Assembly (NCBI GenBank): GCA_015059375.1
Contig: SVAN01000002.1
Location: 27,328 to 91,327, forward strand
Direction of reading: 5' to 3'
DNA length: 64,000 bases
DNA from: Bacillota bacterium
GTDB taxonomy: Bacteria; Bacillota_I; Bacilli_A; RF39; UBA660
Below, in pieces: positions 47,369 to 63,323 of the stretch; the first letter of the stretch is position 1, and each line of letters starts with the position of its first letter. Under the pieces are notes generated by a model. That model was not told the DNA's origin and did no database searches. It worked only from the letters and a program-made list of their open reading frames with translations. A program made the position numbers and the translations under genes.

Positions 47369-47498
47369 TCCCATACATACCTATTTAGTTATTATATAAA
47401 ATTCATTAAAACCTAGGTAAATAAAGGGTTTAGTAGAAGTTTGTATAAATCGATATTACTATCATTTTATTAAAATTTACTACTAAATTATCATCAAG

Positions 47499-47523
47499 TG
47501 ATACGTTTTTGATACGTTTTTTT
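47499..47523 (+). repeat. tandem GATACGTTTT(T) repeat (putative integrase arm-type site), left arm
   Basis: gtGATACGTTTTTGATACGTTTTTtt. The same tandem recurs at 63053-63076 and 63221-63243. Confidence 0.6.
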
Positions 47524-47571
47524 GAATATGTATTAACAAATAAACTCATTGTGTAACTTCAGTTTATTTGA

Positions 47572-47587
47572 TGATATAATTATATCA
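47572..47587. promoter_or_regulatory. perfect 16 bp palindrome overlapping a TATAAT box (possible operator)
   Basis: TGATATAATTATATCA, 22 nt upstream of the first element ORF. Confidence 0.3.
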
Positions 47588-47609
47588 TTTAAAGATAGGA
47601 AAAAACAAT

Positions 47610-47894
47610 ATGTCTTATGTGGAAAATGATTTAATTCAAACTATAATAGATGATTTAATATTTCTTAATAAGAAGTATGGCAAAAAGATGTTTATAGTTA
47701 AATTGGGTAATCAATGTATAGATATAACATATAACAAAAGAACCTTTAATTTGTATATCTTACATAAAAATAATAATATACTATTACATTTAAAGTACTT
47801 AAATAAATTGATTTATGAAATAGATATAAGTATAGGCATTAGAAGATACTCTATTAAATTAGTAATGAGAGCAATTAAAAAGTATAAGCCATAA
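47610..47894 (+). CDS. hypothetical protein (element)
   Basis: 94 aa ORF with RBS aggaaaa. Confidence 0.45.
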   Translation: MSYVENDLIQTIIDDLIFLNKKYGKKMFIVKLGNQCIDITYNKRTFNLYILHKNNNILLHLKYLNKLIYEIDISIGIRRYSIKLVMRAIKKYKP

Positions 47895-48021
47895 TTAAAT
47901 GTATCTCTTTTAAACTCTAGGAAAAGATTAGTTAAAGTAATATAAATTATTAAATTAATCTGTTTCGTTTATCCATGATATCCCAAATTAATCCAGGATA
48001 ATAAATTTTAACTAATTAAAA

Positions 48022-48046
48022 TAAAAAACGATAAATAGATTATCGC
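48022..48046 (-). terminator. terminator of the XRE repressor gene
   Basis: cgataa-ataga-ttatcg hairpin plus T6 on the minus strand. Confidence 0.5.
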
Positions 48047-48060
48047 TTTAGATTACATTA

Positions 48061-48074
48061 CTTACAAACTTACA
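48061..48074 (-). repeat. TGTAAGTTTGTAAG motif, copy 1
   Basis: Exact 14-mer on the minus strand, 15 nt downstream of the XRE gene stop. Confidence 0.7.
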
Positions 48075-48088
48075 CACTTTTCCATATA

Positions 48089-48379
48089 TTAGTATTTAGT
48101 TTTAGGTTTTCTTGTACCTGTTACTTCATCTAATCTATTAGGTGTATTATAATGTGATTCATCATCTTTTAATAATAGATAAGTATCTATGTTTAGAGCA
48201 AGTGCTAGGTCGTCTAACTTTTCAAGACTAGGACAAAACTGTCCTCTTTCAAGGTCTGATATGTATTTATCAGTTAAATCTGTTTTTATAGCTAGGTCAA
48301 CTTGTGTCATCTTATTTTCAATTCTATAATATCTTAGATTAATTCTAAAAATTTCTCTTATATCTTTTCTTATACTCAC
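48089..48379 (-). CDS. XRE-family HTH transcriptional regulator (cI-like repressor)
   Basis: MTQVDLAIKTDLTDKYISDLERGQFCPSLEKLDDLALALNI HTH. Divergent from the replication genes. Confidence 0.8.
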   Translation of the reverse strand: MSIRKDIREIFRINLRYYRIENKMTQVDLAIKTDLTDKYISDLERGQFCPSLEKLDDLALALNIDTYLLLKDDESHYNTPNRLDEVTGTRKPKTKY

Positions 48380-48620
48380 AGTTTTACCACCACCTTATGT
48401 AGTTTAATTATAAGGATTTCACTTTATGATACACACCTAGTCAAAAAGTGATATTATTTATATCTCTTTTAAATTCTGGTTAATGTTTTTAGTATTTTAA
48501 TGTATTTATATTTCAAAGGTATTTCGTTTAATAGGGATTAAATGGGATATCTTTTTTATATATGTTAAAGTTTATAAAAACTGATTATAATAATCTAATG
48601 AATTTAGAAAGGTTGATTTG

Positions 48621-49028
48621 ATGAATGATATTATATTTGATGATACAAAGAACGAAAACAATAAACTCATTTATGTATATAGTGAAGATAAAGACAAAAG
48701 AAATAAAATCTTAAAAGTTATAAATGATTCTCTACTAAATACAAGATTAGCAGTGATGATAAATACAAAAGAATTTATAGATAATAAGAATATTCTTGAA
48801 GATATAAAGAATAATGATATTGATACTTTTATAGTTGATGATATTGAACTATTAAGTAATGATTATGAATTACAAACTTTATTCTTTAATACATTTAATC
48901 ACTTATATACTTATGATAAAAAATTAATATTACTATCAAGTCTATCTCCGACTAAACTTATTGGATTTAATAAGAGATTAAAAGCAAGATTATCTTGGGG
49001 TAAGGTTTATTGTTTAGATGATATTTAA
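48621..49028 (+). CDS. DnaA AAA+ domain-III-only homolog lacking a Walker A P-loop
   Basis: IDTFIVDDIELL, LQTLFFNTFNHL, KKLILLSSLSP and RLKARLSWG parallel DnaA LLIDDIQF, EEFFHTFN, QI.LTSD..P and RL.SRF.WG. The P-loop position reads YSEDKDKRNK. Confidence 0.65.
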   Translation: MNDIIFDDTKNENNKLIYVYSEDKDKRNKILKVINDSLLNTRLAVMINTKEFIDNKNILEDIKNNDIDTFIVDDIELLSNDYELQTLFFNTFNHLYTYDKKLILLSSLSPTKLIGFNKRLKARLSWGKVYCLDDI

Positions 49029-49097
49029 GAATAAAAATGATGTTAAATATTTTAAAAATTAATTATAATAAGCCCTAATTGAAAGTTTAGTGATAGT

Positions 49098-49796
49098 ATG
49101 ATTCATAGAGTTGTTAAAAATAGTAATTACACAATAGTAAATAATGTATATTTAAGAGATAAAGCTTTAAGTTTTGGGGCTATAGGATTAATGACTAATA
49201 TACTATCTTGTAAAGATGATACTAATTTTAATGTTAAATTCTTAAGTATGTTGACTAGTAAGAGTGAAAAAGTTGTAACTAAATATCTAAATGAATTAAA
49301 ACGAAATGGTTATGTTGATGTAGAAAAATTAAATAGTAAAGATGGATTTTACTATAATTATTATGTTTATGAATCTAAAGAATTAAATCCTAAATATTCT
49401 TATAAAAGCCCAGATACCCAAAACCCAACCTGGGAAAGCCCACCTTTGGGTTTGGTAGATACTAATAAATACTTATATAAACAAGATAAAATAGATAAAT
49501 TACATTTAGACTTAAATAATATAACTATTTATTTAGTAGATAAAGGATTAATTAAGGTTGATGACATTACTCTCTTTGCTTATGATGACTTTATAAAAGA
49601 GTTATTTAATAATGAAGATTATAAAAAAGTAGTCAAAAGTATTTCTTATACTACTAATCATATATTAAAGAATAAGTTTAGAGATGAATCACATCAACCT
49701 ATATTAAATTTATTCTCTTATTTTAAAAGTTCAGTAATTAGTAATATTAATAGACAATACACTAATGAAGAATTAGAAGATTTATATGATATTTAA
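49098..49796 (+). CDS. winged-HTH replication-initiator/DnaD-like DNA-binding protein
   Basis: The N-terminal pattern YTIVNNVYLRDKALSFGAIGLMTNILS...FLSMLTSKSEKVVTKYLNELKRNGYV is typical of plasmid and phage Rep wHTH proteins. Confidence 0.5.
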   Translation: MIHRVVKNSNYTIVNNVYLRDKALSFGAIGLMTNILSCKDDTNFNVKFLSMLTSKSEKVVTKYLNELKRNGYVDVEKLNSKDGFYYNYYVYESKELNPKYSYKSPDTQNPTWESPPLGLVDTNKYLYKQDKIDKLHLDLNNITIYLVDKGLIKVDDITLFAYDDFIKELFNNEDYKKVVKSISYTTNHILKNKFRDESHQPILNLFSYFKSSVISNINRQYTNEELEDLYDI

Positions 49797-49913
49797 TTAC
49801 ATATTACTCAAAATTTTAAATATTATTATTTATAATAATATTTAAGAAAATTTGGCTATGTATTTTTATAAAATCTATAATTATAATATGCCTTCAAGAA
49901 AGGCGGTGTGATT

Positions 49914-50174
49914 ATGAATAACAAAGATATTTTACTACTTAAAGAGATAATTAAAAACAATAGAATATTAGTTGATGAAATGTTTGTGTCTTTTGATGTA
50001 GAAAAAAATAGTATATCTAATTCTTTTAAAAGTATGTTAGAATTAGTTGAGAATATTTTAAAAGAAAAAGACTGTCCATACTGTAAGGAAAATAAAACTG
50101 ATAGTATTGACCCTAATGTGCTATGTCCATCTTGTAGAAGAACTTTTGGGCATAGCTTTTTTAATGAGTTATGA
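49914..50174 (+). CDS. small zinc-ribbon protein
   Basis: CPYC ... CPSC pair. RBS aaggcgg. Confidence 0.45.
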   Translation: MNNKDILLLKEIIKNNRILVDEMFVSFDVEKNSISNSFKSMLELVENILKEKDCPYCKENKTDSIDPNVLCPSCRRTFGHSFFNEL

Positions 50175-50189
50175 AAGGAAAATAAGAAT

Positions 50190-50435
50190 ATGTATAATAA
50201 TTTAGTATATGTTATAGGCAAAATAAAAGAAATAGACAAAGATATAGTAAAAATTAAAGTTAAAAAAGATGATAAAGAATTTAATATAATAACTTGTCAA
50301 TTACTTAATATGTCAACAGAATCACTAGAAGTTGATAAATTAATCGGTATTAGAGGTTTTTTAGAATCTGATGAAAATGATAATATAAAAGTTATTGTAT
50401 TAAAATTAACTCATTTGCCAAGTTTTGAGGAGTAA
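50190..50435 (+). CDS. mini OB-fold (SSB-like) protein
   Basis: NLVYVIGKIKEI...FNIITCQLL...DKLIGIRGFLES follows the SSB OB-fold strand pattern. No acidic tail. Confidence 0.4.
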   Translation: MYNNLVYVIGKIKEIDKDIVKIKVKKDDKEFNIITCQLLNMSTESLEVDKLIGIRGFLESDENDNIKVIVLKLTHLPSFEE

Positions 50436-50442
50436 GATACAA

Positions 50443-51153
50443 ATGAATTATGTAAGAATATATTATAAATTAAGTTTTAAATATAGATTATTATTATGTT
50501 TATTAAATAATTATTATTTAAATCATTATGCAAAGAATAAAATTAATAGTAAAATTGTAGTATCATCTCCTGATGAGTCAAAACTCATGAGAGATTATGA
50601 GATTATATTTAATGTTATTAAGAATTTAAAAATAGATGATTTAATAACATTAAGAAAATTTATACCTAAACATCAAATAGAAATAATTAAAATCTTTGAT
50701 GAATTAAAGAAACAAGATATAGACTATAGTAAGATTATTGATGATATAAAGAAAGAATATGTTGAAGATAATAGTATTTATTATAATGATTATTGTGATG
50801 ATTATGAGTATGACTATGACTTAAAGAAAAATAGTATTACTGAAGATACAAAAATACTATTTTTAGAGAATTCCTATTTAAAAGAAGTATATAATAAGCA
50901 TTTAATTAGAAATGTATTTAGCACAGATAATTATTCTATATGCAGAATGAGGTCTGGTAGCAATAATGAATTTTTAGGAACTCTAACAAGTTATGCTTTA
51001 AAATATAAGAAAATAAATAATATAGTAAGAGACATCACTAGTATTAATTTAGAAGATGATTCTTACTATTGCCTTAATTTATATTTAGAAGCAAATGATG
51101 ATGTTATAAGTTATATACAAGAAGATTTATATAATGCGAGAATTGATGATTAG
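50443..51153 (+). CDS. hypothetical protein (element)
   Basis: Start set at the ATG after RBS gaggag. No motif recognised. Confidence 0.45.
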   Translation: MNYVRIYYKLSFKYRLLLCLLNNYYLNHYAKNKINSKIVVSSPDESKLMRDYEIIFNVIKNLKIDDLITLRKFIPKHQIEIIKIFDELKKQDIDYSKIIDDIKKEYVEDNSIYYNDYCDDYEYDYDLKKNSITEDTKILFLENSYLKEVYNKHLIRNVFSTDNYSICRMRSGSNNEFLGTLTSYALKYKKINNIVRDITSINLEDDSYYCLNLYLEANDDVISYIQEDLYNARIDD

Positions 51154-51169
51154 ACTTGAGGTGTGAAAT

Positions 51170-51568
51170 ATGAATAGATTAACTCCAACATTAAAAATGT
51201 TAGAAAAAATTAAAGAAGATAAAATATTTAAAGCATACGTTAGACAATATAAAGAAAATTCTACTATCAATATTGAGTTGCTTAAAGAATTAATTACTCA
51301 TTACAGAGATTTATTAGAAATATATTACAAAGTTAATATAGTGTATGTAGGGAAAAATAATTTAAAATCATTTAGTAACTTAAGTGATAATATAAAAGAT
51401 ACTAATCATCATTTTAATAGACACTTATATTTAGATGATATACACTATTTTAATGAATTTATATTTAGTGACTACGAACTATATTCTAAAACTAGGAAAA
51501 CAATTATAGATGAATTATTAGTTTCTAAAGAAGAGATAGAATTATTAAAAGAATTTGAAGAATTTTAG
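51170..51568 (+). CDS. hypothetical protein (element)
   Basis: 132 aa with RBS gaggtg. Confidence 0.45.
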   Translation: MNRLTPTLKMLEKIKEDKIFKAYVRQYKENSTINIELLKELITHYRDLLEIYYKVNIVYVGKNNLKSFSNLSDNIKDTNHHFNRHLYLDDIHYFNEFIFSDYELYSKTRKTIIDELLVSKEEIELLKEFEEF

Positions 51569-51645
51569 TAATAAGTAATTAACTTAGTTGTCATTTTGTG
51601 TTATACTCTTTATAAGATAAACTAACTGTTTTACTTCTAGTTAGT

Positions 51646-53004
51646 TTGAGAGGAGTATGTAGTGTGGTTAATTCTAATATTATAAGAAAGATAAATGATT
51701 TTTTTAGCAAAAAAAAGGTTATTAAACATATTATATTGTTATTATTATTTGGAATAATAACAGGATTTCTTTATGTATCTAATGATATATTTATGCTTAG
51801 AGCTAAAATTATAGTTATTGTTATAGTTATATTAATTTATTCTTCTATACTACTATGTAAAAGTTTTTATAAAATAGATGATAAATATAACTGGGATAAG
51901 CCTCCAAAAATATACTTTTATGTTAGTATGTTTCTACCTATTGTAGGTTTTATAATGTGGTGTGTATTAGTAAATCATAAACCTAATTCAGCAAAATTGA
52001 CTATTAAAGGTTGTTTATGCAGTTTATTATTACCTATTTTAACATTTATAATAAGTTTACCTATATATTTTGTTAGCGCAGGTATCTCAAGTACATTAAG
52101 AAATACTATATATTCTGATAGTTATACTGAAACTTATAATATTGAATTAATATATAATCAAGATGCACACATTGTAGAAGCAGATGATTTAGATGTAAAA
52201 ATAACATTTAAGGGATATAAAGATGATTTAGAAAAATTTAAAAAAAGCGAAGATTTTAAGAAATATTTTGAAAGTAATCAACTATCTATAAGTTTGAAAA
52301 CTTGTCAAGAAACTTGTGATTTATCTTCAATAATTGAATACTATGTTAAAAATAGTACAAAAAAATATAATTTAAAGTATAAAATAGATAATAAAATTAT
52401 TGCTAAAATATATGACAAAATATCGACTGTTATAACTGTTTATAGTGAAGAAGATACACATATACAATATGATACATTAGTAGATTTGTATTTATATTCT
52501 AGTGATGATAAGGTATATGCTAAAATAGGTAATAAAATTAAATTAGCTCAAAATTTATCTATAAACGCAAAAGAAAGTAAAGATATAATTATATTCGGAA
52601 CAAAAGAGCAATTAAATAATATTCCACATAATGAATATTTCAAAATCAAAGTAGTTAAAACAGGAACAAAAAATGTTTTCTTAAATTACAAAGAAGTTAA
52701 TGTAACTGAATTTGAAAAAATATATGAAGAATACAAAAATTCATTTGTTAGTAAAGAAGTAAATATCAAAATAAATACTTTAGGTAGTAGTGATTTAAAA
52801 ATCATTGATATAAAAACTTATCCTGAAAAAATAAAAATTACTGGACCAAAAGAAGTAATTGATAATATAGAGATTATAGAAATAGATGTTAATGTCGATG
52901 GATTATCAGAAAATAAAACTTTAAAAGTAACTATACAAAAACCAAATGGAGTACAAGAAATAAGTGAAAAAGTTGCAAATGTAGAAATATATGTAGAAGA
53001 TTAG
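51646..53004 (+). CDS. multi-TM protein with extracellular C-terminal YbbR-like domain
   Basis: 4-5 TM helices. C-terminal PEKIKITGPKEVIDNIEIIEIDVNVDGLSENKTLKVTIQKPNGV...VANVEIYVE fits the YbbR repeat pattern. The start may be the GTG at 51664. Confidence 0.55.
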   Translation: MRGVCSVVNSNIIRKINDFFSKKKVIKHIILLLLFGIITGFLYVSNDIFMLRAKIIVIVIVILIYSSILLCKSFYKIDDKYNWDKPPKIYFYVSMFLPIVGFIMWCVLVNHKPNSAKLTIKGCLCSLLLPILTFIISLPIYFVSAGISSTLRNTIYSDSYTETYNIELIYNQDAHIVEADDLDVKITFKGYKDDLEKFKKSEDFKKYFESNQLSISLKTCQETCDLSSIIEYYVKNSTKKYNLKYKIDNKIIAKIYDKISTVITVYSEEDTHIQYDTLVDLYLYSSDDKVYAKIGNKIKLAQNLSINAKESKDIIIFGTKEQLNNIPHNEYFKIKVVKTGTKNVFLNYKEVNVTEFEKIYEEYKNSFVSKEVNIKINTLGSSDLKIIDIKTYPEKIKITGPKEVIDNIEIIEIDVNVDGLSENKTLKVTIQKPNGVQEISEKVANVEIYVED

Positions 53005-53015
53005 GAGTTTTTTAG

Positions 53016-53531
53016 ATGAAAGATGTATTGTATAATGAGAAAAACGATTTCAATGAAATAACTATAAAAGAAGATTTTATTAAATTAAAAAAAGACAATA
53101 ATGTTAAAATATATTACTTTGATTCTATAGATTTAAAAAATAGTTTTAAAACTCATATAGAAAATGATTTTGTAGAAATTTCACTATTAAGCAATAATAA
53201 AGAAATTCTATTTATGATTAAAAAATCTAATTTTTTAAAATTTAAAGAGGTAATAAATCCTATAAAAAGAGGTTATTTAAATCAAGATTTTTCCTTTGAT
53301 GAAAAAGTAGATAATAACGAAAAAAATTATAACCCTAGTGAAGATGATGATGTTTCTCCAATATATGGCGTTATAGGGTTTTTTATACCTATCATTGGGT
53401 TTATTATATGGTTAGTATTAGTAAATACAAAACCTAAATCTGCAAAAATTGCAGGAATTAGCGCATTAATTGGATTTATAATTAATAGTATAGTTTATTT
53501 CTTTTTGCTTGGCCCTATTATATTTGAGTAA
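53016..53531 (+). CDS. membrane protein sharing a TM motif with the preceding gene
   Basis: PIIGFIIWLVLVNTKPKSAK versus PIVGFIMWCVLVNHKPNSAK in the 452 aa protein. Confidence 0.5.
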   Translation: MKDVLYNEKNDFNEITIKEDFIKLKKDNNVKIYYFDSIDLKNSFKTHIENDFVEISLLSNNKEILFMIKKSNFLKFKEVINPIKRGYLNQDFSFDEKVDNNEKNYNPSEDDDVSPIYGVIGFFIPIIGFIIWLVLVNTKPKSAKIAGISALIGFIINSIVYFFLLGPIIFE

Positions 53532-53544
53532 AGAGGTTTGTTAA

Positions 53545-54063
53545 ATGAGTTTAATTAAATGTCCTGAATGTGCAAAAGAAATAAGTAATAATACAAATGA
53601 GTGTATTTATTGTGGTTATAGATTAAAAAAAGAAGTTAATATTAAAAATAATAGTAAAGTAATAATTCATAGTTATAATGACCCATATTTGTATAGTCCA
53701 GCAATTAAAGTTTATAATAATGGAGAGTTTATAACTGAAATTAATAAAGGTCAAACTATATCATTATCTATTGATAATGACACTATTTTTACTTTTAAGC
53801 ACTCAAATAAAAGTATAGATGTCAAAGTTTTGTGTAATAGAATAACTGAGATACAATTATTTTATACAAGAGGTGTTGCCTTAAGAGCAATTACTAATAT
53901 TCAAGGTAAAGATGCAGAATCTAATGTTATCAATAATAAGACTTTTCAAGAAACTATAAGAAAGCAAAAAGCAATTAATAACATTTGGATAACTATTGCA
54001 ATTATCTTAATTATAATTGGTTTAATATGGGGAATTATTGATGGTATACAAGCAATAGGTTAA
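53545..54063 (+). CDS. zinc-ribbon protein with C-terminal TM anchor
   Basis: N-terminal CPECAKEISNNTNECIYCG and a C-terminal hydrophobic helix. Confidence 0.55.
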   Translation: MSLIKCPECAKEISNNTNECIYCGYRLKKEVNIKNNSKVIIHSYNDPYLYSPAIKVYNNGEFITEINKGQTISLSIDNDTIFTFKHSNKSIDVKVLCNRITEIQLFYTRGVALRAITNIQGKDAESNVINNKTFQETIRKQKAINNIWITIAIILIIIGLIWGIIDGIQAIG

Positions 54064-54086
54064 GACACAACAAAGTGTCTTTTTTG
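54062..54086 (+). terminator. rho-independent terminator
   Basis: aagacac-aacaaa-gtgtctt followed by a T-run. Confidence 0.6.
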
Positions 54087-54238
54087 TTTGAAAAATAATT
54101 TAGCTAGTAATGATATACTATATACTATCTATCATTTTTGCACTCTTTTTATATATTAATAATGAAGATGATGATTGATGAAATATAATGATTTGTTATC
54201 AATTATAATAAATTTTATATTTTCAAAAAGAAAGGAAT

Positions 54239-54679
54239 ATGTACATTATGTTAAATAATAATATTATAGTTATAAGAGGTCATGCTGGAAGTTACAAAAG
54301 TGATTTAGCTCAAATTTTAACTAACTCTATTAATGATAGAAAGTGTTGTTATATTGATTTAGATATTAATAAGAAATTAAAATTAAATGAAAATATAACA
54401 TTATATCAAGATAATATAAAAGATTTCTCTGTTGTCGAAGAAATAATAAATCAGAATGATGTAGTTGTTATAGATTATTTGTCGTTGTTTAATCTATTTA
54501 TTAATGAAAATGCTTTATTACATAAACTTTGTGTATTAGTTAAAAAACGTAAGAAAACTCTTATAACAGTAGAATGTATTAGTTGTAATAGAGATTTGTT
54601 GTCAGATGAAAAATATCAAGTTTTAAAATCGAATGCTGATTTAATTATAACTTTGGATACAAATTTAATCACTATGTAA
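54239..54679 (+). CDS. mini RecA/KaiC-like ATPase-fold protein with degenerate Walker A
   Basis: IIVIRGHAGSYKSDLA (Tyr in place of the P-loop Gly) and the Walker-B-like VVVIDYLSLF. Confidence 0.4.
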   Translation: MYIMLNNNIIVIRGHAGSYKSDLAQILTNSINDRKCCYIDLDINKKLKLNENITLYQDNIKDFSVVEEIINQNDVVVIDYLSLFNLFINENALLHKLCVLVKKRKKTLITVECISCNRDLLSDEKYQVLKSNADLIITLDTNLITM

Positions 54680-55068: not shown

Positions 55069-55118
55069 TTAATGAAAATGTTTATGTAGATTTTGCCTAT
55101 GTACGAATAATTTAGTTT

Positions 55119-55228: not shown

Positions 55229-55293
55229 ATCTGTGTATTAATTATTAAACTTGTAGTAGAATATTTAAAATAAATTAGAAAGAGGTTTTTATT

Positions 55294-56256
55294 GTGAATA
55301 ATGATATTACTATAATAGATAGTAATACTTTGATTACTATTAACTCAAATCAAGAAATAATTAATAAATGGTTTAAAATGTCTGAATTGACTAATAAAAA
55401 TACCAAACAAACTTATTTGGAAGGACTTTGTAAGTTTGTAAGTTTCATAAAAGAAAAAGGAATTGTTAATCCTACAAGTGAAACTATAATTGATTTTAAA
55501 GAATTTTTAATGAATAGATATTCTAATTCATCATCATACAATTATTTAAGTGGAGTAAAAAGTTTTTATAAATTTTTAGAACTACAAAATATAAGTCAAG
55601 ATATTACAAGAGGAATTAAGTTACCAAAAATTCAAAGAGGAAATAAAAAAGACTCTTTAACTTTAGACCAATTAAAGAGTTTGTTCTCTATTTTGAATCA
55701 AGACACTTTATTAAATGCACGAGATTGCTGTATAATTCAATTAATGATTAGAACTGGTTTAAGAAGTTGTGAAGTTATTGGAGCAAATATTGAAGATATT
55801 CAAAATAAAGAGGGAGAAAAAGTCTTGTATATCAAAGGTAAAGGACATACAGAAAAAGATAATTTTGTAGTGATAGAGCCAGACTTAATGAATATCATAG
55901 ATAATTACTTAAATAAGAGAAAGAAATATATAGATAAAGACCCTTTATTTATAAGTTTAAGTAATAATACTTATGGAGAAAGATTAAAAAGTATTAGTTT
56001 TAGAAAGATAGTCAAAGAAAAATTAAGAGAAGCAAATATTGATAGTAATAGAATTAGCACTCACTCTTTAAGACATACTGCAATTACTCTTGCACTAATA
56101 TCAGGTTCAACTTTAGTAGAAACTAGAGATATGGCGAGACATACAGATATAAATACTACTGCTGATTATTTTACAAATCTACAAAGAGTACAAAATAGTC
56201 CAGAAGCAAAAATAGGTAAATTTATTAAAGAAAATATCACTTCTGATATAAATTAA
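55294..56256 (+). CDS. XerC/XerD-like tyrosine recombinase (internal)
   Basis: RTGLRSCEV (Arg I), HSLRHTAIT (H-x-x-R) and ARHTDINTTADY (catalytic Tyr region). GTG start with RBS agaaagagg. Confidence 0.85.
   Translation: MNNDITIIDSNTLITINSNQEIINKWFKMSELTNKNTKQTYLEGLCKFVSFIKEKGIVNPTSETIIDFKEFLMNRYSNSSSYNYLSGVKSFYKFLELQNISQDITRGIKLPKIQRGNKKDSLTLDQLKSLFSILNQDTLLNARDCCIIQLMIRTGLRSCEVIGANIEDIQNKEGEKVLYIKGKGHTEKDNFVVIEPDLMNIIDNYLNKRKKYIDKDPLFISLSNNTYGERLKSISFRKIVKEKLREANIDSNRISTHSLRHTAITLALISGSTLVETRDMARHTDINTTADYFTNLQRVQNSPEAKIGKFIKENITSDIN
55429..55442 (+). repeat. TGTAAGTTTGTAAG motif, copy 2 (inside recombinase CDS)
   Basis: Exact 14-mer. Confidence 0.7.
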
Positions 56257-56330
56257 AAAGGATTTAGGTATCTATAATTATTATTATAGTTACCAATTTT
56301 TTTTTAAGCAATTTTATATATAAAAACTAT

Positions 56331-56344
56331 TGTAAGTTTGTAAG
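56331..56344 (+). repeat. TGTAAGTTTGTAAG motif, copy 3
   Basis: Exact 14-mer, intergenic. The upstream flank ttatataaaaa is shared with copy 4. Confidence 0.7.
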
Positions 56345-56350
56345 TCAAAT

Positions 56351-57442
56351 TTATAAAATTTTAGAATTTTTACATAATTCTATTAGTAACATTTCATCAT
56401 TTTTAGAAGAATCTTTAAAACATGATTTTATAGCATTAGTATTATTAATCTGTTTGTTAATTTCTTCATTGTTTAATTCTTTAAGTTTACCTACTAAAAT
56501 TTTACAAGAATTATTTAAATTATTTCTAGTGTTGTTTTTGTGAAAGTTTGGGTCCTCATTAAAACAACTACTGCAAAGATTTTTAGTTAGTCTGATTGTT
56601 GGTATTGAACATCTATGACATATATTAAAGATTGTACTATTAAGATAAACACAATTTAAAAAATAATAGACTATTGCTTGAACCAAATTGTTAGTTTCAA
56701 TGTAATTTTCATTAAGGTTATTTATAATTTGACTATTATATTGTTTGTAAGATGAAATATATAAATAATATTCTTGTTTAAAACATTTGATATAATAATT
56801 TAATTCTTCAACATATATTTTAACTTCTTGTAATTCATTAAAACCCATAATATTATTTAAATGAAGTTTATCATTTTTATTTAGTTTAGTATCAATAATT
56901 TTTTTAATTTCTGCTAATACATATATAGTAATTGAAGTAAAAATTAAATCTTTAGCTCTAACAGCTAGAGATATACCGTTATTGTGACTTTCTTCAATAA
57001 GCTCTTTATCTATATTTTCATAGTAAGGTAACCCATTTTTATGACAAAAGTCTATAATTAAATCAAATATAAGTTTATCTTCAATTAATTTATCATAATT
57101 TTTAATTTTAATAACGTGATTAGTATTTGGTTCTATATCATCATATAAATTAAAATCTATGTTATTTTTTTCTTCAAATGTATTAGTACCTTTTAAAGAT
57201 AATAATACTATTTTCATATCTTTTCTCTTTTTAATAAATATTTTACTAAAATAATCTATACCTTCAATTTGAAGGTATAATTTTTTTCCTAAATTACATA
57301 ACTCTTTAAATTTAGTTTCTAAATCTTCAATTTTTGTATTATATGATTCATTTCCAAAGCCCTCAATAATATAATAATTAAATATTTTTTTTAAATTATA
57401 GTTTTCAAAAGTATAAACATTTCTTTTAAGATTTAACCTCAT
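56351..57442 (-). CDS. hypothetical protein, sole long antisense-oriented gene of the element (cargo candidate)
   Basis: 363 aa with a C-terminal CHRC...CSSC pair and its own RBS aaaggagg. Confidence 0.5.
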   Translation of the reverse strand: MRLNLKRNVYTFENYNLKKIFNYYIIEGFGNESYNTKIEDLETKFKELCNLGKKLYLQIEGIDYFSKIFIKKRKDMKIVLLSLKGTNTFEEKNNIDFNLYDDIEPNTNHVIKIKNYDKLIEDKLIFDLIIDFCHKNGLPYYENIDKELIEESHNNGISLAVRAKDLIFTSITIYVLAEIKKIIDTKLNKNDKLHLNNIMGFNELQEVKIYVEELNYYIKCFKQEYYLYISSYKQYNSQIINNLNENYIETNNLVQAIVYYFLNCVYLNSTIFNICHRCSIPTIRLTKNLCSSCFNEDPNFHKNNTRNNLNNSCKILVGKLKELNNEEINKQINNTNAIKSCFKDSSKNDEMLLIELCKNSKIL

Positions 57443-57692
57443 ATAGTCCTCCTTTTAAAAAAATCTATCAATTAATACCACTTTTTTCCGACTTATTTAT
57501 TTGGATTTTATTATATAGTATTCTGTTATTGCTGGCGTTAATTGTGAAAACTTTTCTGAATTTGCATTTCATAATTAACTAATTGATATTATTTTAACTA
57601 AAGGTTAAGAAAATGTCTAGGAAATTCAAATAATATTGAGGAAAATTTTTTAAGAAAGGAAACTACAACTATTCTTCCTCTAATTTATATAG

Positions 57693-58181
57693 TTGTGGTT
57701 AATGGAACATGTTATGCAAATAACAGATTATGATAGAATTAAAGGGAATGAAGAAAGTGAATTTAATGAAAGAGCGAGAAGACGTCTTGAAATAAAGAAA
57801 AAATTCCGCCAAAATGAGCGTTGTAAAGGTACTTATGACCCAAAAGAAGGAGTTTATAATGTAGTTATTGGCCAAATTTCTATTAAAGAAAATAGAAACG
57901 GCAATTCTTATATGCAATTTGTTTGTCACAACCTAGATAAGAAAGAAAAATTATATGCTTCTTATTATTTAACAGATGGCACAGATGAATCTTCAATAAC
58001 TGATTTAAGATGTTTACTTGATGAATTTAACCAAGATGATTTTACTGATTATGAAATAGTTGATGATTATGCTATATTAGAAAGATTACAAATACTAATT
58101 GGTGAAGAAGCTAAATTAGTAGTTGAAGACCAAGATGGTTATATGTCAGCGAAGTTATACAGAGAGATTCCAAATGAATAA
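57693..58181 (+). CDS. DUF669-like putative ssDNA-binding protein, translationally coupled to polB
   Basis: GVYNVVIGQISIKENRNGNSYMQFVCHNLD pattern. Its stop overlaps the polB start. The start codon is uncertain. Confidence 0.4.
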   Translation: MWLMEHVMQITDYDRIKGNEESEFNERARRRLEIKKKFRQNERCKGTYDPKEGVYNVVIGQISIKENRNGNSYMQFVCHNLDKKEKLYASYYLTDGTDESSITDLRCLLDEFNQDDFTDYEIVDDYAILERLQILIGEEAKLVVEDQDGYMSAKLYREIPNE

Positions 58182-59976
58182 TCTTATATATTATGACATA
58201 GAAGTTTTTTGTCAAGATTGGCTATTTATAGCCAATCTTGATGAACACTTTATTGTAATTCATAATGATAAAGATAAATTAGATAATTTTATAAAGAAAC
58301 ATAAAAATTACTGGTATGTTGGTTATAATAATTATCATTATGATGACTTAATATTAACAGATATTCTTAACGGAAATAATCCGTATTATTTAAGCAAAAT
58401 GATTATTAATAAAACTGAAAATATTAATATTGATGTAATTCCAAATTTTAAAAGTTTAGATTTAATGCAAGATATTCAAAAAGAAAATAGTAATACCTTT
58501 ATGAGTCTAAAGAAGATTATGGGAAATTTAGGATTATCTATTGTCGAAAGTTCAGTCTCTTTTGATATTGATAGACCACTTACAACATTTGAACTTGAAG
58601 AAACAATAAAATATTGTTCTAATGATGTATTAGGAGTAAAAGTATTATATAAATATAGATATAAATATTTTGAAACAAAATTTACACTTATAAATGAGTT
58701 TGATTTACCTATTGAAACAATTAGATTAGATGAAAATAAATTAGTGTCATTAATCTTAAAATGTAAATGGTTTAAGGAGCCAAGAGATTATTTATCTTTT
58801 GATTATTGTAAACAAATCGATTTTAATTTAATTCCAAACGAAGTATTAGATTTTTACGCTGATATAGAATATAAGTATTTTAAGGGTATGGATTATAAAA
58901 AAGCTATTATTAGTGTTGGTAAAAAAGGAAAATTAAATACAAAACTTTTAGGAGTTCAAACCAACTATGGTTTAGGAGGTTTACACGCTTGTTCTAAAGC
59001 ACGAATGTTTGTAAATAATATTATGCAAATAGATGTGAGTTCTTATTACCCAACACTTATGGTTAATAATGAATTTTATAGTCGTTCTTTTACAAAACCA
59101 GAATTATACAAAAGTATTTATAACAAAAGAATGAAATTAAAAGAAGTTGATAAGTTACGTTCCGATGCGTATAAATTAATTTTAAATAAACCTATTGGCT
59201 GTATGCGTAGTGAAATGATTATGAAAGATTTTCATAATGCGAATAATATTATAGTTAATGGGCAGTTGATACTTACTCAATTAGTTATGGAACTTAAAGA
59301 TTATATTATCTTATTACAAATAAATACTGATAGTATTACTTTCAAATATAATAAAAGAAACTACGATAAAATATTAAATATTATCTGTGACTTTGAAAAG
59401 AGGTTTAATCTTAAATTTGATAAAGATAAAGTTAAGTTTTTATACCAGAAAAATGTCAATAATTATTTTTTAATTATGGAAGATAATAAAATGAAATTTA
59501 AAGGACAAGACTTTAAAAATTATGATAAACATGACTTTATTTATTTAAATAATAGTCGAAGTATTATAAGTAAATGTCTAGTTGAATATTATAAGAATAA
59601 AACTCCTATAGAAGAAACAGTTAGAAAATGTTATGACAATGATGAAATAGATAGATTCCAATTAATAGTATCCTATGGAAATAAATATGACAAGTGCTTT
59701 TTAGAATATCAAGGTAAACTTATCGAACAACCACAAAAAGTTAATCGTGTATTTGCAGTGAAAAATAATGAATACGGATTAATTTATAAGTGTAAAAAAG
59801 TCGATAAAGAACAAGATAAAAATACCTTTGAACAAAATGGTTGCTTTTATAAGAAAGAGAAAATGCCTAATTCTTTTGAACACAATTATATATTTAATGA
59901 TGATATATCAAAGTTCGATAAAGCGTTATTAGATTTAGATTATTATATCAAAATTTGCAAGAAGGAGTTAAAGTAA
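58174..59976 (+). CDS. compact family-B DNA polymerase with 3'-5' exonuclease domain
   Basis: ExoI YYDIEVF, ExoII NNYHYDD, ExoIII YCSNDV, motif A DVSSYYPT, motif [10 protein letters not shown], motif C NTDS. Start set at MNNLIYY. Confidence 0.8.
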
Positions 59977-59977
59977 A

Positions 59978-61498
59978 ATGAAAGATTATTATAAAATTTT
60001 AGGAGTAAGTAAAAATGCTAGTGTTGATGAAATAAAAAAAGCATATCGAAAACTAGCAAAAAAGTATCATTCTGATAATAAAGAAACTGGCAATGAAAAA
60101 AAGTTTAAAGAAATCCAAGAAGCATATGATACATTAAATAATGAAGAAAAGCGACAAGCATATGATACATTTTGCAAATCCAATACTAATTATGAGAAAA
60201 CTACAAATGATGATTATAAAAAAGATTTAAATGCTATGTTTAAATCATATGCTGAAGATGATAATTTGTATTTTATAACATACCTTGCTGAATATTTAAG
60301 TAAAACATATTGTTTTAAATTATATAATGGTTTATTATATGTTAAGTTTGATAAAAAGTATATTAATAATGAAAAAGAAATAATACAAAGATTAAATCAA
60401 GATATAAAACTTACTAAAAGACATTTTAAGGAATTGATGTATCAATTAGAATTATACGCAGAAAAAATTACAGACCAAGTTAATAAAATTCGATTAAATA
60501 ATGGAATATTAACTTTAAGTGATAAAGGTATATACGAAGTAATTGAAGATGATGGTAGTTTTTGTCCTTATAATCTAGATGTAGACTATAATGCAGATTT
60601 AACAGATGAAAAGGTAAATAATTTTTTAAATGATGTTAGTTGTAATAATACAGATATACTTAATATGTTAACAGAAATGATAGGCAGTATCTTAATTACT
60701 GAACCTAAATCACAATTTATGTTTTTTATTCACGGCGTTAAAGGTAGAAATGGTAAAAGTACATTTACTTCTGCGTTAAGGGAATTTGTTGGAAAAGATT
60801 TATCTTCAAATGTTAGTATCACAGGTTTTAAGGATGAAACTAAATTAAGTTCTTTGCGAGGTAAGATTCTTAATATTTGTGATGACGCTGACTACGAAAA
60901 AATATATCTAGAACGTTCACAAACACTTAAGTCATTAGCGAGTGGTGAGTTAATAAATTGTCGCCCGATTTATAGACATCCAGTTAGTTTTTTTAATACT
61001 GCAACAATTATTTGTACTACAAATACTATGCCTGAATTTGCAGATAAAAGTGGTGGAACTCGTCGTAGATTAATTATAATTGAATTTAATATGGTTGTAG
61101 ATAAAAATAATAATAATCCAAATTTACTTGATGAATTAACAACTAATACTGCTAAAACAACATTTTTAAATATTGCTATTAAAGGTATGAATAGATTATT
61201 GAATAATAACTATTATATTACCGAAAATGAAACTCTTACTAAAACTTTAGAAGAATATTATCGAAGTAGTGATACAGTTAAGGATTTTATTGATAGTGGT
61301 GCAGAAATCGAAAATCAAATAGTTGCCAATGTATATAACGCTTATGAAACATTTTGTGATAAAGTAATTTGTCGTGAAAAAGAAAGCAAAAATGTTTTCG
61401 GTATGCGCATGAAACAATATGGATATATTTCTAAAGTTGACACAAAAACAAGAGATGATAGAAAAAAAGTTTCTCAAAGAATTTATATAAAAAAGTAA
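59978..61498 (+). CDS. J-domain :: D5_N-like :: SF3 (P4/D5-type) helicase fusion protein
   Basis: N-terminal [31 protein letters not shown]...[19 protein letters not shown]. Walker [11 protein letters not shown], Walker B NICDDAD, motif C ICTTN and RRRLIIIEF. Confidence 0.85.
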
Positions 61499-61499
61499 A

Positions 61500-61512
61500 T
61501 GTAAGTTTGTAA
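61500..61512 (+). repeat. TGTAAGTTTGTAA motif, copy 4
   Basis: 13-mer beginning 2 nt after the helicase stop codon. Confidence 0.65.
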
Positions 61513-61583
61513 TACTTATATGTACGATTTAAAAAAAATATTTTATAATATCAAATTAACATAAACTAAGGAGATGATAACTT

Positions 61584-61874
61584 ATGGAAGATATACGAAA
61601 TATGAAAGTTGGAGACTTTTTAGATTTACTGACAACATTGATTAACAATAAACAAGAAAATGATACAGAAAAAAAGTATTTATCTAAAAACGAAGTTTTA
61701 GAGCAATACCCATTATTTACCGAAAGTAGTTTATCTAAAGCTGTTAAATTTCAAGGTTTAGAATATATTAAATCTGGAAGATGTAGATACTATGCAAAAG
61801 ATTCAATAGAAAAATGGCTTGAAAATCAAAAACAAAAAGAAATTTATAATCGATTTGAAGGAATTAAATTTTAG
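61584..61874 (+). CDS. xis: excisionase-family HTH protein
   Basis: Small HTH protein (KYLSKNEVLEQYPLFTESSLSKAVKFQGLEYIKSGR.RYYAKDSIEKWL) immediately upstream of int. Confidence 0.6.
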   Translation: MEDIRNMKVGDFLDLLTTLINNKQENDTEKKYLSKNEVLEQYPLFTESSLSKAVKFQGLEYIKSGRCRYYAKDSIEKWLENQKQKEIYNRFEGIKF

Positions 61875-61894
61875 TTAGAATTGAGGTACTTGTT

Positions 61895-63055
61895 ATGAAT
61901 ACTAAAGATGAAGATATGAAATATATTACAATTTTACCTAATGGTTCAAAAAGAATTAGTGTTAGAATTGGACGAGGTATTGATGGCAAATACCTTTATG
62001 ATACTAAACAATTAGGTAAAGAAGTAGATATAAAAGAAGTAAAAAAACTTCGTGATAAAATGGTAGAAAATAAACAAAATATAAAGAATATAGATGGAAG
62101 TATGTTAGTAGAGACTTTTGCTAAAAAATGGCTAGTTGAAGTTGTTTTAGCACAGTCTCCTAATACTTATGATGATAATTACTCAAAATTAAAACATCAT
62201 ATAATTCCTTATTTTGGTACAAGTAAATTAAAAAATATCACTCAAGATAAAGTTCAAGAATTAGTAAAATATTTAACCACTAAAAAAGCAATGAATAAAA
62301 AAGATTCATTATTAAGCGTCACTACTATAAAACATATAGTAAATGTCTTAAGTTCAATGATGAATTATGCTATAGAATTAAAAATGATTAAAACTAATCC
62401 TTGTCACGATATAAAATACCCAAAAGGAGAAACTTTTGAAAAAGAAGTATATAACGTTGAAGAAATTGGTATTTTAATAAATCATTTAAAACTATTACCA
62501 TCTCAAAATAAAGCTTTGTATATTGTATTATTAACAACTGGATTAAGGCGTGGTGAGTTAATAGGATTACATTGGAAAGACATAGATTTTAAAAATAAAA
62601 CAGTATCTATTAAAAAAGCATATTATAAAACAAAGGTAAGTGGTAAAGTAACAACTAAACCAAAATCTAAATATAGTATTAGAACAGTCGGTTTAAGTGA
62701 TTTAGCTATTGAATGTTTATTAGAATATAAGAAAGAACAAGATATATGGAAGAAAAAATATTCAAGCGAATGGAAATCTCCTAATGTATTTACAGATGTA
62801 TTTGGAAATATTTTAAGTCCTGATGCAGTGTCTAGTAGATGGACAAGACTAGTTAAGAAAATACCTGTTAAAAATATTAGACTACACGATTTAAGAGCAA
62901 GTTATGCAACATATTTAGTTTATAGTGAAACCCCAATAGCAGATATATCTAAAACTATGGGACATTCAAGAATAAGTACAACTGTTGATATGTATGTAAA
63001 AAGTTACGATAAATATTATGAGTCAGCACGAAATAATATTAATAAAATTCGTTGA
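61895..63055 (+). CDS. int: phage-type tyrosine integrase
   Basis: TTGLRRGEL (Arg I), HDLRASYAT (H-x-x-R) and GHSRISTTVDMY (catalytic Tyr), with an N-terminal arm-binding-type extension. Adjacent to the att end. Confidence 0.9.
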   Translation: MNTKDEDMKYITILPNGSKRISVRIGRGIDGKYLYDTKQLGKEVDIKEVKKLRDKMVENKQNIKNIDGSMLVETFAKKWLVEVVLAQSPNTYDDNYSKLKHHIIPYFGTSKLKNITQDKVQELVKYLTTKKAMNKKDSLLSVTTIKHIVNVLSSMMNYAIELKMIKTNPCHDIKYPKGETFEKEVYNVEEIGILINHLKLLPSQNKALYIVLLTTGLRRGELIGLHWKDIDFKNKTVSIKKAYYKTKVSGKVTTKPKSKYSIRTVGLSDLAIECLLEYKKEQDIWKKKYSSEWKSPNVFTDVFGNILSPDAVSSRWTRLVKKIPVKNIRLHDLRASYATYLVYSETPIADISKTMGHSRISTTVDMYVKSYDKYYESARNNINKIR

Positions 63056-63076
63056 TACGTTTTATTGATACGTTTT
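63053..63076 (+). repeat. tandem GATACGTTTT repeat, copy overlapping the int stop codon
   Basis: tGATACGTTTTATTGATACGTTTT. Confidence 0.6.
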
Positions 63077-63093
63077 AGTAAAATTGACATTAA

Positions 63094-63129
63094 AAAAGGA
63101 ACTCTAAATGCTAGAATTCCTTTTATTTT
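63094..63129. terminator. bidirectional terminator between int and the element tRNA-Cys
   Basis: aaaaggaa / ttcctttt stem with T-runs on both strands. Confidence 0.5.
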
Positions 63130-63133
63130 CTTA

Positions 63134-63207
63134 TGGAGGAGCCAGTCGGATTTGAACCGACGATGGAGGTGTTGCAGACCTGTGCCTTACCACTTGGCTA
63201 TGGCTCC
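63134..63207 (-). tRNA. intact tRNA-Cys (anticodon GCA) carried inside the element
   Basis: GGAGCCA-TA-GCCAAGTGGTAAGGC-A-CAGGT-CTGCAAC-ACCTC-CATC-GTCGG-TTCAAAT-CCGAC-TGGCTCC-T-CCA. Confidence 0.95.
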
Positions 63208-63220
63208 ATTTTTTGATAAC

Positions 63221-63243
63221 TGATACGTTTTTGATACGTTTTT
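63221..63243 (+). repeat. tandem GATACGTTTTT repeat, right arm
   Basis: tGATACGTTTTTGATACGTTTTT, preceded by the half-copy GATAAC. About 80 bp inside the att core. Confidence 0.6.
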
Positions 63244-63323
63244 AATAATTTTATTAAATTTTTATTTAATCATTCCTTTAATTACGAGGGTTTGCAACGC
63301 ATTTATACTTAAGAGTACGAGGC

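Follow-up and report, generated by a model that had tools for sequence, protein, structure and literature searches.

A tRNA-Cys-splitting island of uncultured gut Bacilli with a family-B DNA polymerase cassette and no recognized virion or mating-pore genes

The window analyzed here is a stretch of 64,000 nucleotides from contig SVAN01000002.1 of a Bacillota bacterium (assembly GCA_015059375.1), and the element under study is an island of 15,955 bp, at positions 47369 to 63323, that lies between the two halves of a host tRNA-Cys gene. A sequence-only reading had drawn its boundaries at these positions and had described one integrated, tRNA-targeting, recombinase-bearing element that supplies its own family-B DNA polymerase (PolB) and a superfamily 3 (SF3) helicase. 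The tRNA-Cys rejoined in silico confirmed these boundaries exactly, and the description was upheld by Pfam and PHROGs profile searches, with which the domains and phage families of the island open reading frames (ORFs) were assigned, and by AlphaFold2 (AF2) modeling. We counted 20 ORFs of at least 80 amino acids (aa) plus one tRNA, rather than the 22 ORFs given before. Nine related loci (L001, L003, L006 to L009, L119, L120, and L123) form, together with the window island, the ten-locus family discussed below. The features of the island are as follows, E values being given after the profile names.

47326 to 47368, minus strand: attL, the 3' part of the interrupted host tRNA-Cys, up to and including the 7-bp overlap GTTGCAG (47362 to 47368)
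47499 to 47521, plus strand: P' arm-type repeats, TGATACGTTTT twice, about 135 bp inside attL
47610 to 47894, plus strand: ORF of 94 aa with no relatives among the family loci
48061 to 48075, minus strand: octamer-repeat motif TTGTAAGTTTGTAAG, just 3' of the XRE gene
48089 to 48379, minus strand: XRE/Cro-CI-type repressor, divergent from the rightward operon (PF01381, 1.2e-11; phrog_3, 2e-12), present in seven family loci
48618 to 49028, plus strand: DnaA AAA+ domain fragment (PF00308, 2.4e-13, profile positions 57 to 159 of 162)
49098 to 49796, plus strand: replication initiator, winged helix-turn-helix (HTH) and DnaD-like (phrog_4707, 6e-16; phrog_186, DnaD-like loader, 4e-7), conserved in seven loci
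49908 to 50174, plus strand: small Cys-rich, Zn-ribbon-like protein of 88 aa, conserved in the family
50190 to 50435, plus strand: short OB-fold protein of 81 aa resembling an SSB, the protein that binds single-stranded DNA, in one BLASTP cluster with L003 and L119 proteins that bear the PF00436 SSB domain
50425 to 51568, plus strand: two proteins of 242 and 132 aa, conserved in the family
51646 to 54063, plus strand: three membrane proteins, of 452 aa (four transmembrane segments and a YbbR domain), 171 aa (two transmembrane segments), and 172 aa (Zn ribbon and one transmembrane segment)
54239 to 54679, plus strand: small P-loop-like protein, in whose slot relatives have a ParA or DnaB_C-type ATPase
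54679 to 55068, plus strand: HTH_17/MerR-type DNA-binding protein, paired with the second recombinase (PF12728, 8e-5; phrog_66, 7e-7), present in eight family loci
55294 to 56256, plus strand: second, Xer-like tyrosine recombinase (PF00589, 4e-21)
55428 to 55442: octamer-repeat motif inside the recombinase ORF
56330 to 56344, plus strand: octamer-repeat motif that marks the left edge of the polymerase cassette, just 3' of the recombinase
56351 to 57442, minus strand: antisense 363-aa protein with a C-terminal CxxC...CxxC motif, a conserved core gene
57693 to 58181, plus strand: phage-type SSB, its start probably at 57714, directly upstream of the polymerase in 10 of 10 loci
58174 to 59976, plus strand: compact family-B DNA polymerase of 600 aa, the ORF being open from 58123
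59978 to 61498, plus strand: J domain fused to an SF3 helicase (DUF5906) of the type found in Rep of Staphylococcus aureus pathogenicity islands (SaPIs), with no primase domain (PF00226, 8.5e-23; PF19263, 6.6e-18)
61499 to 61513, plus strand: octamer-repeat motif directly 3' of the helicase stop, a candidate ori iteron, at the right edge of the cassette
61584 to 61874, plus strand: excisionase-like HTH protein (PF12728, 0.005), 69% identical to the L003 protein in the same position
61895 to 63055, plus strand: phage-type tyrosine integrase (PF00589, 3e-24; phrog_1, 7e-67)
63052 to 63077, plus strand: P arm-type repeats, TTGATACGTTTTA twice
63134 to 63207, minus strand: complete, element-borne tRNA-Cys(GCA) (ARAGORN), with acceptor stem GGAGCCA/TGGCTCC against GGAACCA/TGGTTCC in the host gene
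63221 to 63243, plus strand: a further set of P arm-type repeats, beyond which a decayed copy of the tRNA 3' half runs to the core
63324 to 63362, minus strand: attR, the 7-bp overlap GTTGCAG (63324 to 63330) and the 5' portion of the split host tRNA-Cys

The island interrupts the host tRNA-Cys exactly within the anticodon loop, and the sequence of that loop, GTTGCAG on the plus strand, occurs at both junctions. Integration by the integrase (Int) is site-specific: the genes for Int and the excisionase (Xis) are at the right end, and arm-type repeats lie on both sides of a core formed by the anticodon stem-loop of tRNA-Cys. Joining the reverse complement of 63324 to 63360 to that of 47326 to 47361 in silico yielded a canonical tRNA-Cys(GCA) whose acceptor stem (GGAACCA/TGGTTCC) is fully paired (7/7), as detected with ARAGORN, the program used for tRNAs throughout. 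In two related metagenome contigs (L194 and L187), an uninterrupted tRNA-Cys is contiguous with about 300 bp that resemble the right flank of the window, with 71 to 74% identity across the junction. The island has a GC content of about 22% (21 to 25%) and a positive GC skew, and its flanks have about 30% and a negative skew. A division into two tandem elements (47.4 to 56.3 kb and 56.3 to 63.3 kb) was rejected, given that there is no internal tRNA-like core and that the two halves travel together in relatives with other integrases and insertion sites.

Inside its right end, the island carries a complete tRNA-Cys with its own co-adapted acceptor stem, which identifies this gene as a replacement brought by the element: the insertion splits the host tRNA-Cys, and the island supplies a complete substitute, to whose 5' half the 5' piece at 63324 to 63362 is 89% identical. 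Sets of arm-type repeats stand on either side of the element's tRNA-Cys, and the repeat is also present in L003, L005, and L119. A comparison by eye of 63040 to 63171 with 63208 to 63323 revealed the decayed 3'-half copy beside the core. The region from 63134 to 63323 has the appearance of a decayed duplicate of the attP region, with arm repeats, a ATTCCTTT box, a scrambled 3' half, and a GAGGC core. The module recurs at tRNA-Cys in relatives, for which the sequence-only reading had proposed a search: L003 and L005, which have diverged from the window (70% identity for the integrase, 50% for the polymerase), show the same layout of integrase, arms, full tRNA-Cys, arms, about 85 bp, and the core with the host 5' half. 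In L119 the layout is classical, with a complete tRNA at the junction. Since the arrangement is common to L003 while that of L119 is classical, the spare-tRNA layout probably arose through duplication of the attP region. That the extra 5' half is the leftover of an earlier element was rejected as the simplest reading, the inner halves being co-adapted and the outer halves pairing together.

The polymerase matches phrog_1252 ("DNA polymerase") with an E value of 6.3e-105, residues 9 to 617 aligning with profile positions 42 to 649 of 663, and has no Pfam match. When its AF2 model (pLDDT 91) was submitted to Foldseek, the best PDB matches were archaeal family-B polymerases (rPolBs; E about 1e-12), and the best matches in BFVD were Siphoviridae polymerases (TM scores of 0.81 to 0.87); a profile search of PDB sequences gave a weak match to E. 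coli Pol II. By tblastn, 751 phage records match at 27 to 32% identity, 186 of them over at least 80% of the query, and they include phages of Paenibacillus, Staphylococcus, Enterococcus, Listeria, and Mycoplasmopsis. Exo I to III and motifs A and B are invariant. Motif C reads LLQINTDS (QxNTDS), with N384, T385, and D386 invariant, and an NTD[SG] motif C was found in 118 of the 120 homologues surveyed, phage ones included. In the AF2 model, motif B is separated from motif C by only two finger helices (residues 327 to 373), which leaves no room for a TPR2 insertion. The protein is a genuine family-B polymerase, compact and with proofreading, that belongs to a tailed-phage clade. A protein-primed PolB or a primer-independent one (piPolB) is ruled out, as SxTTDG, KTRG, and TPR1/2 are absent and the nearest structures are not those of phi29 or Bam35.

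Close homologues of the polymerase (47 to 96% identity) were found solely in metagenome contigs and metagenome-assembled genomes labeled as uncultured Bacilli, from animal and human guts. The ten loci share one architecture, consisting of the left arm, the antisense gene, the SSB-polymerase-helicase trio, and the genes for excisionase and integrase (Xis-Int). Across the family, the left arm comprises XRE, Rep, small conserved proteins, SSB, variable cargo, a small ATPase, an HTH_17/MerR protein, and a second recombinase, and the antisense gene encodes about 330 to 440 aa. Integrases and insertion sites differ from locus to locus. Direct repeats bound elements of 13.5 to 14.7 kb in L001, L007, and L009, the L003 element measures about 15 kb, and the family as a whole ranges from 13.5 to 16 kb. 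Among the cargo are a type III restriction-modification (R-M) system in L006, Flg_new/G5 surface proteins in L008 and L123, and a DUF4379 nuclease-like protein in L119. None of the ten loci contains a structural gene, and our literature searches returned no description of such an island family.

The helicase encoded next to the polymerase matches, over residues 123 to 503, PDB entry 7OLA (E value of 6e-19). This structure is that of PriRep5 from SaPI5, an initiator-helicase that loads itself and whose gene has its iterons immediately on the 3' side (PMC9371898). The helicases of the family have 426 to 450 aa, and four clusters, that of the window included, carry an N-terminal J domain in the place where Prim-Pol would be. 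In a word-indexed search that scored 8,000 candidates, the fusion of a J domain (59978 to 60190 in the window) with an SF3 initiator-helicase turned up in only four protein clusters, all of this island family. The large T antigen of polyomaviruses has the same logic of a J domain and an SF3 helicase domain.

In phage homologues (LincolnB, a Mycoplasmopsis phage, and prophage L012), the polymerase is followed by a primase-helicase of 609 to 671 aa, and in L012 the trio of SSB (phrog_378), polymerase, and primase-helicase adjoins TerL and the portal gene. The Prim-Pol domain PF09250 is present in the L012 and LincolnB helicases, where it scores at or slightly below the Pfam cut-off and recurs in both phage proteins tested, and it is absent from the island-family helicases; no primase was found among the island ORFs with Pfam or PHROGs. 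The profile phrog_378 also matches the SSB of eight of nine family members (best E value of 2e-11). More broadly, the siphophage replication module (SSB phrog_378, PolB phrog_1252, and primase-helicase phrog_864), exemplified by Paenibacillus phage LincolnB, the Enterococcus IME-EFm1 group, and prophage L012, consists of three proteins homologous to those of the island and in the same order, with 30 to 40% identity for the polymerase, about 36% for the helicase, and the NTD[SG] motif C in common. The siphophages differ from the island in their size (35 to 45 kb), in their TerL, portal, head, and tail genes, and in the Prim-Pol and PriCT domains of their helicase, all of which the island lacks. 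By these comparisons, the SSB, PolB, and helicase of the island have their homologues in the replication trio that temperate tailed phages of this host clade carry; the island family kept the trio but lost the Prim-Pol primase domain. Because the polymerase falls in a tailed-phage family and the same trio is found in prophages of the host clade, we conclude that the replication cassette was borrowed from phages; even so, the whole element is no prophage. The sequence-only reading had taken clustering of the polymerase in a well-described prophage family as the mark of an ordinary prophage or satellite; such membership holds for the gene, with phrog_1252 and 751 phage records, and still does not make the element a prophage.

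A 15-mer motif, TTGTAAGTTTGTAAG (repeats of TTGTAAGT / TGTAAGTTTGTAA octamers), occurs four times in the window, all four copies being inside the island, where 0.54 would be expected. Nine relatives share its relative positions, at the boundaries of gene modules. The copy within the recombinase ORF is also present in L120 and L123. We regard the motif as a candidate iteron, operator, or recombination site. Between the window and L123, 92.6% identity is confined to 56315 to 61505 (4060 to 9260 in L123), running from motif to motif; outside this segment, the L123 flanks are 70% identical (recombinase) or unrelated (an integrase of another type). That the identity stops at the motifs indicates that the antisense-SSB-polymerase-helicase block is a recently exchanged cassette bounded by repeats: a cassette of 5.2 kb, encoding the antisense Zn-finger protein, SSB, PolB, and helicase, was swapped recently between two islands. 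Furthermore, compared with L001 and L009, L003 has its whole left arm (164 to 8163, resolvase through Rep) in the opposite orientation, flanked by inverted copies of the octamer motif and adjacent to a serine recombinase. In L006, the serine recombinase is scored as a DNA invertase (phrog_125, 1e-44).

The antisense gene of the cassette had been read as cargo. An hhalign comparison with the antisense proteins of about 400 aa from six relatives (probability of 94%, E value of 1.4e-7, the CxxC...CxxC motif included) identifies it instead as a conserved core gene, and PADLOC gave no match that would make it defense cargo. Its family is rare, with 8 representatives in 1.8 billion proteins. This protein is unlikely to be the missing primase, since no acidic or His residue is invariant in both sub-families; its AF2 model was too poor for use (pLDDT 44).

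The left half of the island is plasmid-like, with an XRE switch, a Rep/DnaD initiator, an SSB, a small ATPase, an HTH protein with a Ser or Tyr recombinase, and variable cargo. Seven loci have a serine resolvase/invertase as the second recombinase, and three have a Xer-like tyrosine recombinase. Of the two small OB-fold proteins reported earlier, the product of 50190 to 50435 does cluster with SSBs and that of 49908 to 50174 is Zn-ribbon-like; the phage-type SSB at 57693 to 58181, ahead of the polymerase, was absent from the earlier gene list. The 242- and 132-aa proteins have no Pfam, PHROG, or PADLOC match. An accessory set of J-domain helicase and mini-DnaA had also been pointed out: the helicase is real, and the DnaA fragment, for which no homologue was found in related loci, is unique to the window copy and no feature of the family. 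This fragment of DnaA domain III has a degenerate Walker A and keeps Walker B and the box VII arginine; it might disturb the oligomers of host DnaA or make use of them. The block of membrane proteins corresponds to the variable cargo region and is the least conserved part of the family. Within two adjacent membrane-protein genes lies a 66-nt repeat (51931 to 51996 versus 53382 to 53447, 79% identity) that encodes a shared transmembrane motif, F(L/I)PI(V/I)GFI(M/I)W..LVN.KP.SAK; by this motif, the two proteins look like paralogous cargo.

Pfam and PHROGs searches of the island ORFs found no match to capsid, portal, terminase, tail, or lysis proteins, to a relaxase, VirB4, or VirD4, or to other components of a type IV secretion system (T4SS). 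They agree with the sequence-only reading, which had recognized no capsid, portal, terminase, tail, holin, relaxase, or T4SS gene, and the same holds across the ten-locus family. The PHROGs search readily detected the structural genes of prophage L012, from the same host clade (TerL, 1e-76; portal, 8.5e-117; head proteins), and this result serves as a positive control for the negative in the island. The island ORFs of more than 300 aa encode the protein with four transmembrane segments, the two recombinases, the Zn-finger protein, the polymerase, and the helicase; beyond the recombinases, the polymerase, and the helicase, only the first and the fourth of these are left, so that there is no room for a terminase or a portal. 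PADLOC found no defense system in the island. A promoter scan of the island gave 157 sites against 153 expected in DNA of 22% GC and was uninformative.

Our favored explanation, to which we assign a probability of roughly 60%, is that the element is an intact, site-specific integrative island that replicates itself and depends on a helper, resembles phage-inducible chromosomal islands (PICIs) and staphylococcal cassette chromosome (SCC) elements, and belongs to a conserved family of uncultured gut Bacilli without particle or mating-pore genes. Its replication set is intact and under purifying selection. The spread of the island probably depends on a helper, and a co-resident tailed phage seems a more likely helper than co-resident conjugation machinery. 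In view of the sizes, the helicase of SaPI type, the XRE switch, and a cassette that comes from phages, our best guess is a satellite lifestyle, with a tailed phage as helper, although we hold it at somewhat less than even odds. Two phage contigs in IMG/VR (L044 and L051), from sample 3300032167, the JGI metagenome in which the window is contig Ga0224413_10001786, encode polymerases 40 to 41% identical to that of the island. These phages are candidate helpers or members of the lineage that donated the cassette. A blastn comparison of the island with candidate helper phages for common cos/pac sites found similarity only in the coding DNA of the polymerase and helicase.

We propose the following cycle. 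Relief of the XRE repressor would allow the island to excise as a circle. The SaPI-Rep-like helicase would then load itself on the TTGTAAGT octamer repeats 3' of its own gene and at the other cassette edge, by analogy with the SaPI ori and the P4 ori/crr, such recognition being suggested by its homology with SaPI Rep and P4 alpha. The J domain may recruit host DnaK, and SSB and PolB would copy the island DNA from primers laid down by the host primosome, via the Rep/DnaD-like protein, or by the helper. The second recombinase could resolve multimers or invert the left arm, and, with the ATPase, it may stabilize or rearrange the episome.

Several points weigh against this explanation. The excised circle or junction for which the sequence-only reading had proposed an assay did not appear: terminal overlaps are absent from the six contig loci in which we searched for them, four being family members, and the predicted attP junction (…GAGTACGAGGC-GTTGCAG-TCCCATACATACC…) has no match in metagenome contigs. 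IMG/VR contains no family member, its closest viral-contig polymerase being 40% identical, and there is thus no direct sign of packaging. The island has no terS, no capsid-remodeling gene, and no recognizable cos/pac site, and its gene order is not PICI-like, int and the repressor lying at opposite ends. That the helicase binds the octamer repeats is suggested by analogy only, and one copy of the repeats falls within the ORF of the recombinase, an odd place for an origin. The scheme also leaves the source of primers unaccounted for, as well as the division of labor between two initiators, the Rep/DnaD-like protein and the Rep-helicase.

The island shares with PICIs and SaPIs a size of about 15 kb (15,955 bp, for PICIs of about 10 to 17 kb), Int and Xis, a specific att site, the absence of structural and lysis genes, an XRE-type repressor with divergent transcription, and a Rep-type SF3 helicase homologous to PriRep5 with short repeats 3' of its gene, where the SaPI ori lies. 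In contrast to them, it has a full family-B polymerase together with a phage SSB, which, to our knowledge, are found in no characterized PICI. Set against their pri-rep-ori module, the island has the Rep-like helicase and the 3' repeats, with PolB in the slot of the primase, which is missing. It also lacks terS, cpm, ppi, or other interference genes, and it adds the Rep/DnaD initiator, the small ATPase, and the second recombinase. Its repressor is at the left end (48.1 to 48.4 kb), and its Int is at the right end (61.9 to 63.1 kb), codirectional with the replication genes. Helper dependence of the island is putative.

An alternative that we consider unlikely, but the most probable of those weighed, is that the element is no phage satellite but an integrative plasmid-like island, mainly chromosomal and sometimes a plasmid, that moves, if ever, through co-resident conjugation machinery, transformation, or vesicles. 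The left arm fits this view, with its Rep initiator, ParA or small ATPase, and HTH protein with a resolvase or Xer recombinase, and so do the lack of terS or a packaging signal and the absence of the family from IMG/VR. In addition, a conjugation module of the type found in integrative and conjugative elements (ICEs) of Mollicutes lies in the same window, at 14300 to 25058, with host metabolic genes on the left. It comprises the following genes.

14300 to 16609: VirD4-like coupling protein
17694 to 20198: M23 peptidoglycan hydrolase
20222 to 22009: VirB4, Mbov_0397 family
22887 to 25058: MMCAP2_0566/Mbov_0396-type membrane protein

With a T4SS module (14.3 to 25 kb) in the same window, the ICE genes could mobilize the island in trans. 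Against a plasmid-like island, however, stand the lack of a relaxase and of a recognizable oriT in the island, the lack of a relaxase among the ICE ORFs tested, and the failure to find a circular contig; moreover, the narrow sizes of 13.5 to 16 kb and the SaPI-type helicase suit a satellite better. Elsewhere in the window, there are two genes for NrdD-like anaerobic ribonucleotide reductases (39036 to 41372 and 42083 to 44026), the second far more divergent and below the family cut-offs, and two FadD-like acyl-CoA ligase paralogues (2560 to 4299 and 45484 to 47196), one of which abuts attL.

More doubtful is a truly "self-synthesizing" element, in which the SSB-PolB pair in the primase slot would both prime and elongate, as a B-family analogue of the CcPol-MP (PolA plus SSB) primase of SCCmec and of piPolB. 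Such an element would stand for an unrecognized class of helper-dependent islands that carry a polymerase, with a phage-derived SSB-PolB that primes and elongates in the primase slot ahead of a self-loading helicase of SaPI-Rep type, octamer repeats that act as origin and as cassette-swap points, and a priming route separate from that of piPolB; we think this improbable. The idea is prompted by the lack, in the whole family, of the Prim-Pol domain seen in phage relatives and of any other primase found in the island, and by the adjacent and overlapping SSB and polymerase genes in all ten loci. The gene before rep, moreover, is a primase in SaPIs and the PolA-SSB primase in SCC elements (PMC10061031), and piPolB shows that priming by a PolB is possible (PMC5695915). 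However, the same SSB-polymerase pair occurs in phages that have a primase, and the pair is thus no primase substitute there; the polymerase lacks the piPolB signatures (KTRG, SxTTDG, and the TPR subdomains); and the Rep/DnaD-like protein could in principle recruit the host DnaG primosome.

The known systems invoked here can be set beside the island in turn. First come SCC elements and the related PolA-SSB/helicase islands of Bacillota, with CcPol-MP (PolA plus SSB) and the Cch2 helicase (Rice 2023, PMC10061031). Like our island, they are integrative, have no virion or conjugation genes, carry conflict cargo such as R-M systems, and contain, beside genes for site-specific recombinases, an operon that encodes a polymerase-family protein, a small protein resembling SSB, and a helicase of SaPI-Rep type. 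They differ in that the island polymerase belongs to the B family and has an intact proofreading domain whereas that of SCC is a truncated A-family enzyme, in the gene order (SSB-Pol in the island, Pol-SSB in SCC), and in the use of tyrosine integrases at tRNA or other sites rather than large serine recombinases at rlmH or ssrA. The resemblance is architectural only, and primase activity of the island SSB-Pol pair is putative. Pipolins share with the island an integrative habit, often at tRNA genes, tyrosine recombinases with an excisionase, a PolB of their own, a small conserved core with variable conflict-type cargo, and no virion genes. In piPolBs, SxTTDG replaces YxDTDS, KH-X8-KTRG replaces KxY, and TPR1 and TPR2 are shared with protein-primed PolBs (PMC5695915). 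The island polymerase has QxNTDS in place of SxTTDG, no KTRG, and no TPR1/TPR2, and pipolins as described have no cassette of SF3 helicase and SSB, unlike the island. Casposons have a Cas1-family integrase (casposase) and terminal inverted repeats; in the island, no ORF has a Cas1 match in Pfam, a split tRNA with a direct overlap of 7 bp forms the ends, and the recombinases are of the tyrosine type. The kinship with pipolins and casposons suggested by the sequence-only reading is therefore not borne out by the polymerase motifs, by the fingers with no room for TPR2, or by the lack of Cas1. In sum, the island resembles PICI/SaPI and SCC-type islands yet fails defining features of each, and it is neither a pipolin nor a casposon.

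A decayed prophage remnant that retained just its integration and replication genes is very improbable. The polymerase-helicase trio and the integrase are phage-like, as such a remnant would require, but the same architecture, free of structural genes, repeats in at least ten diverged loci (polymerase identity of 47 to 96%) with differing integrases and sites; all ORFs are intact, the catalytic motifs are invariant, and the cassette was exchanged recently. With the phage contigs, furthermore, the islands have in common only the polymerase, the helicase, the integrase, an SSB that matches weakly, and XRE and Xer matches from single loci. Hardly credible, finally, is a capsid-less, membrane-enveloped virus of the plasmavirus or pleolipovirus kind, with a particle made from the three membrane proteins and the small NTPase: these proteins and the P-loop-like protein do form one block, the host clade matches Mollicutes-type ICE proteins, and the pleolipovirus His2 uses a PolB, but the membrane block is the least conserved part and is replaced elsewhere by an R-M system or surface proteins, the M23 peptidoglycan hydrolase of the window ICE suggests a walled host, and PHROGs revealed no homology to plasmavirus or pleolipovirus proteins.

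As a rule, small integrative islands and satellites have no more than a primase and a helicase of their own and rely on the polymerase of the host or helper. Among dsDNA viruses, encoding a polymerase is associated with a larger genome and is nearly always (98%) accompanied by a primase (PMC4889955). Given this usual pairing, an island of 16 kb with a proofreading PolB and no primase is unusual. The family described here packs a proofreading PolB, an SSB, and a helicase that is, by homology, self-loading into 14 to 16 kb and has shed the primase, which raises the questions of who primes and of why so small an element carries its own polymerase. In it, a phage replication cassette passes whole from one island to another at a conserved repeat, and it shows that a tRNA-targeting element can carry a complete spare tRNA and not just the usual 3' half. 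The family inhabits animal-gut Bacilli without cultured representatives, yet has no member in IMG/VR. Should its members prove to be satellites, the satellite concept would gain a new host group and a new replication strategy.

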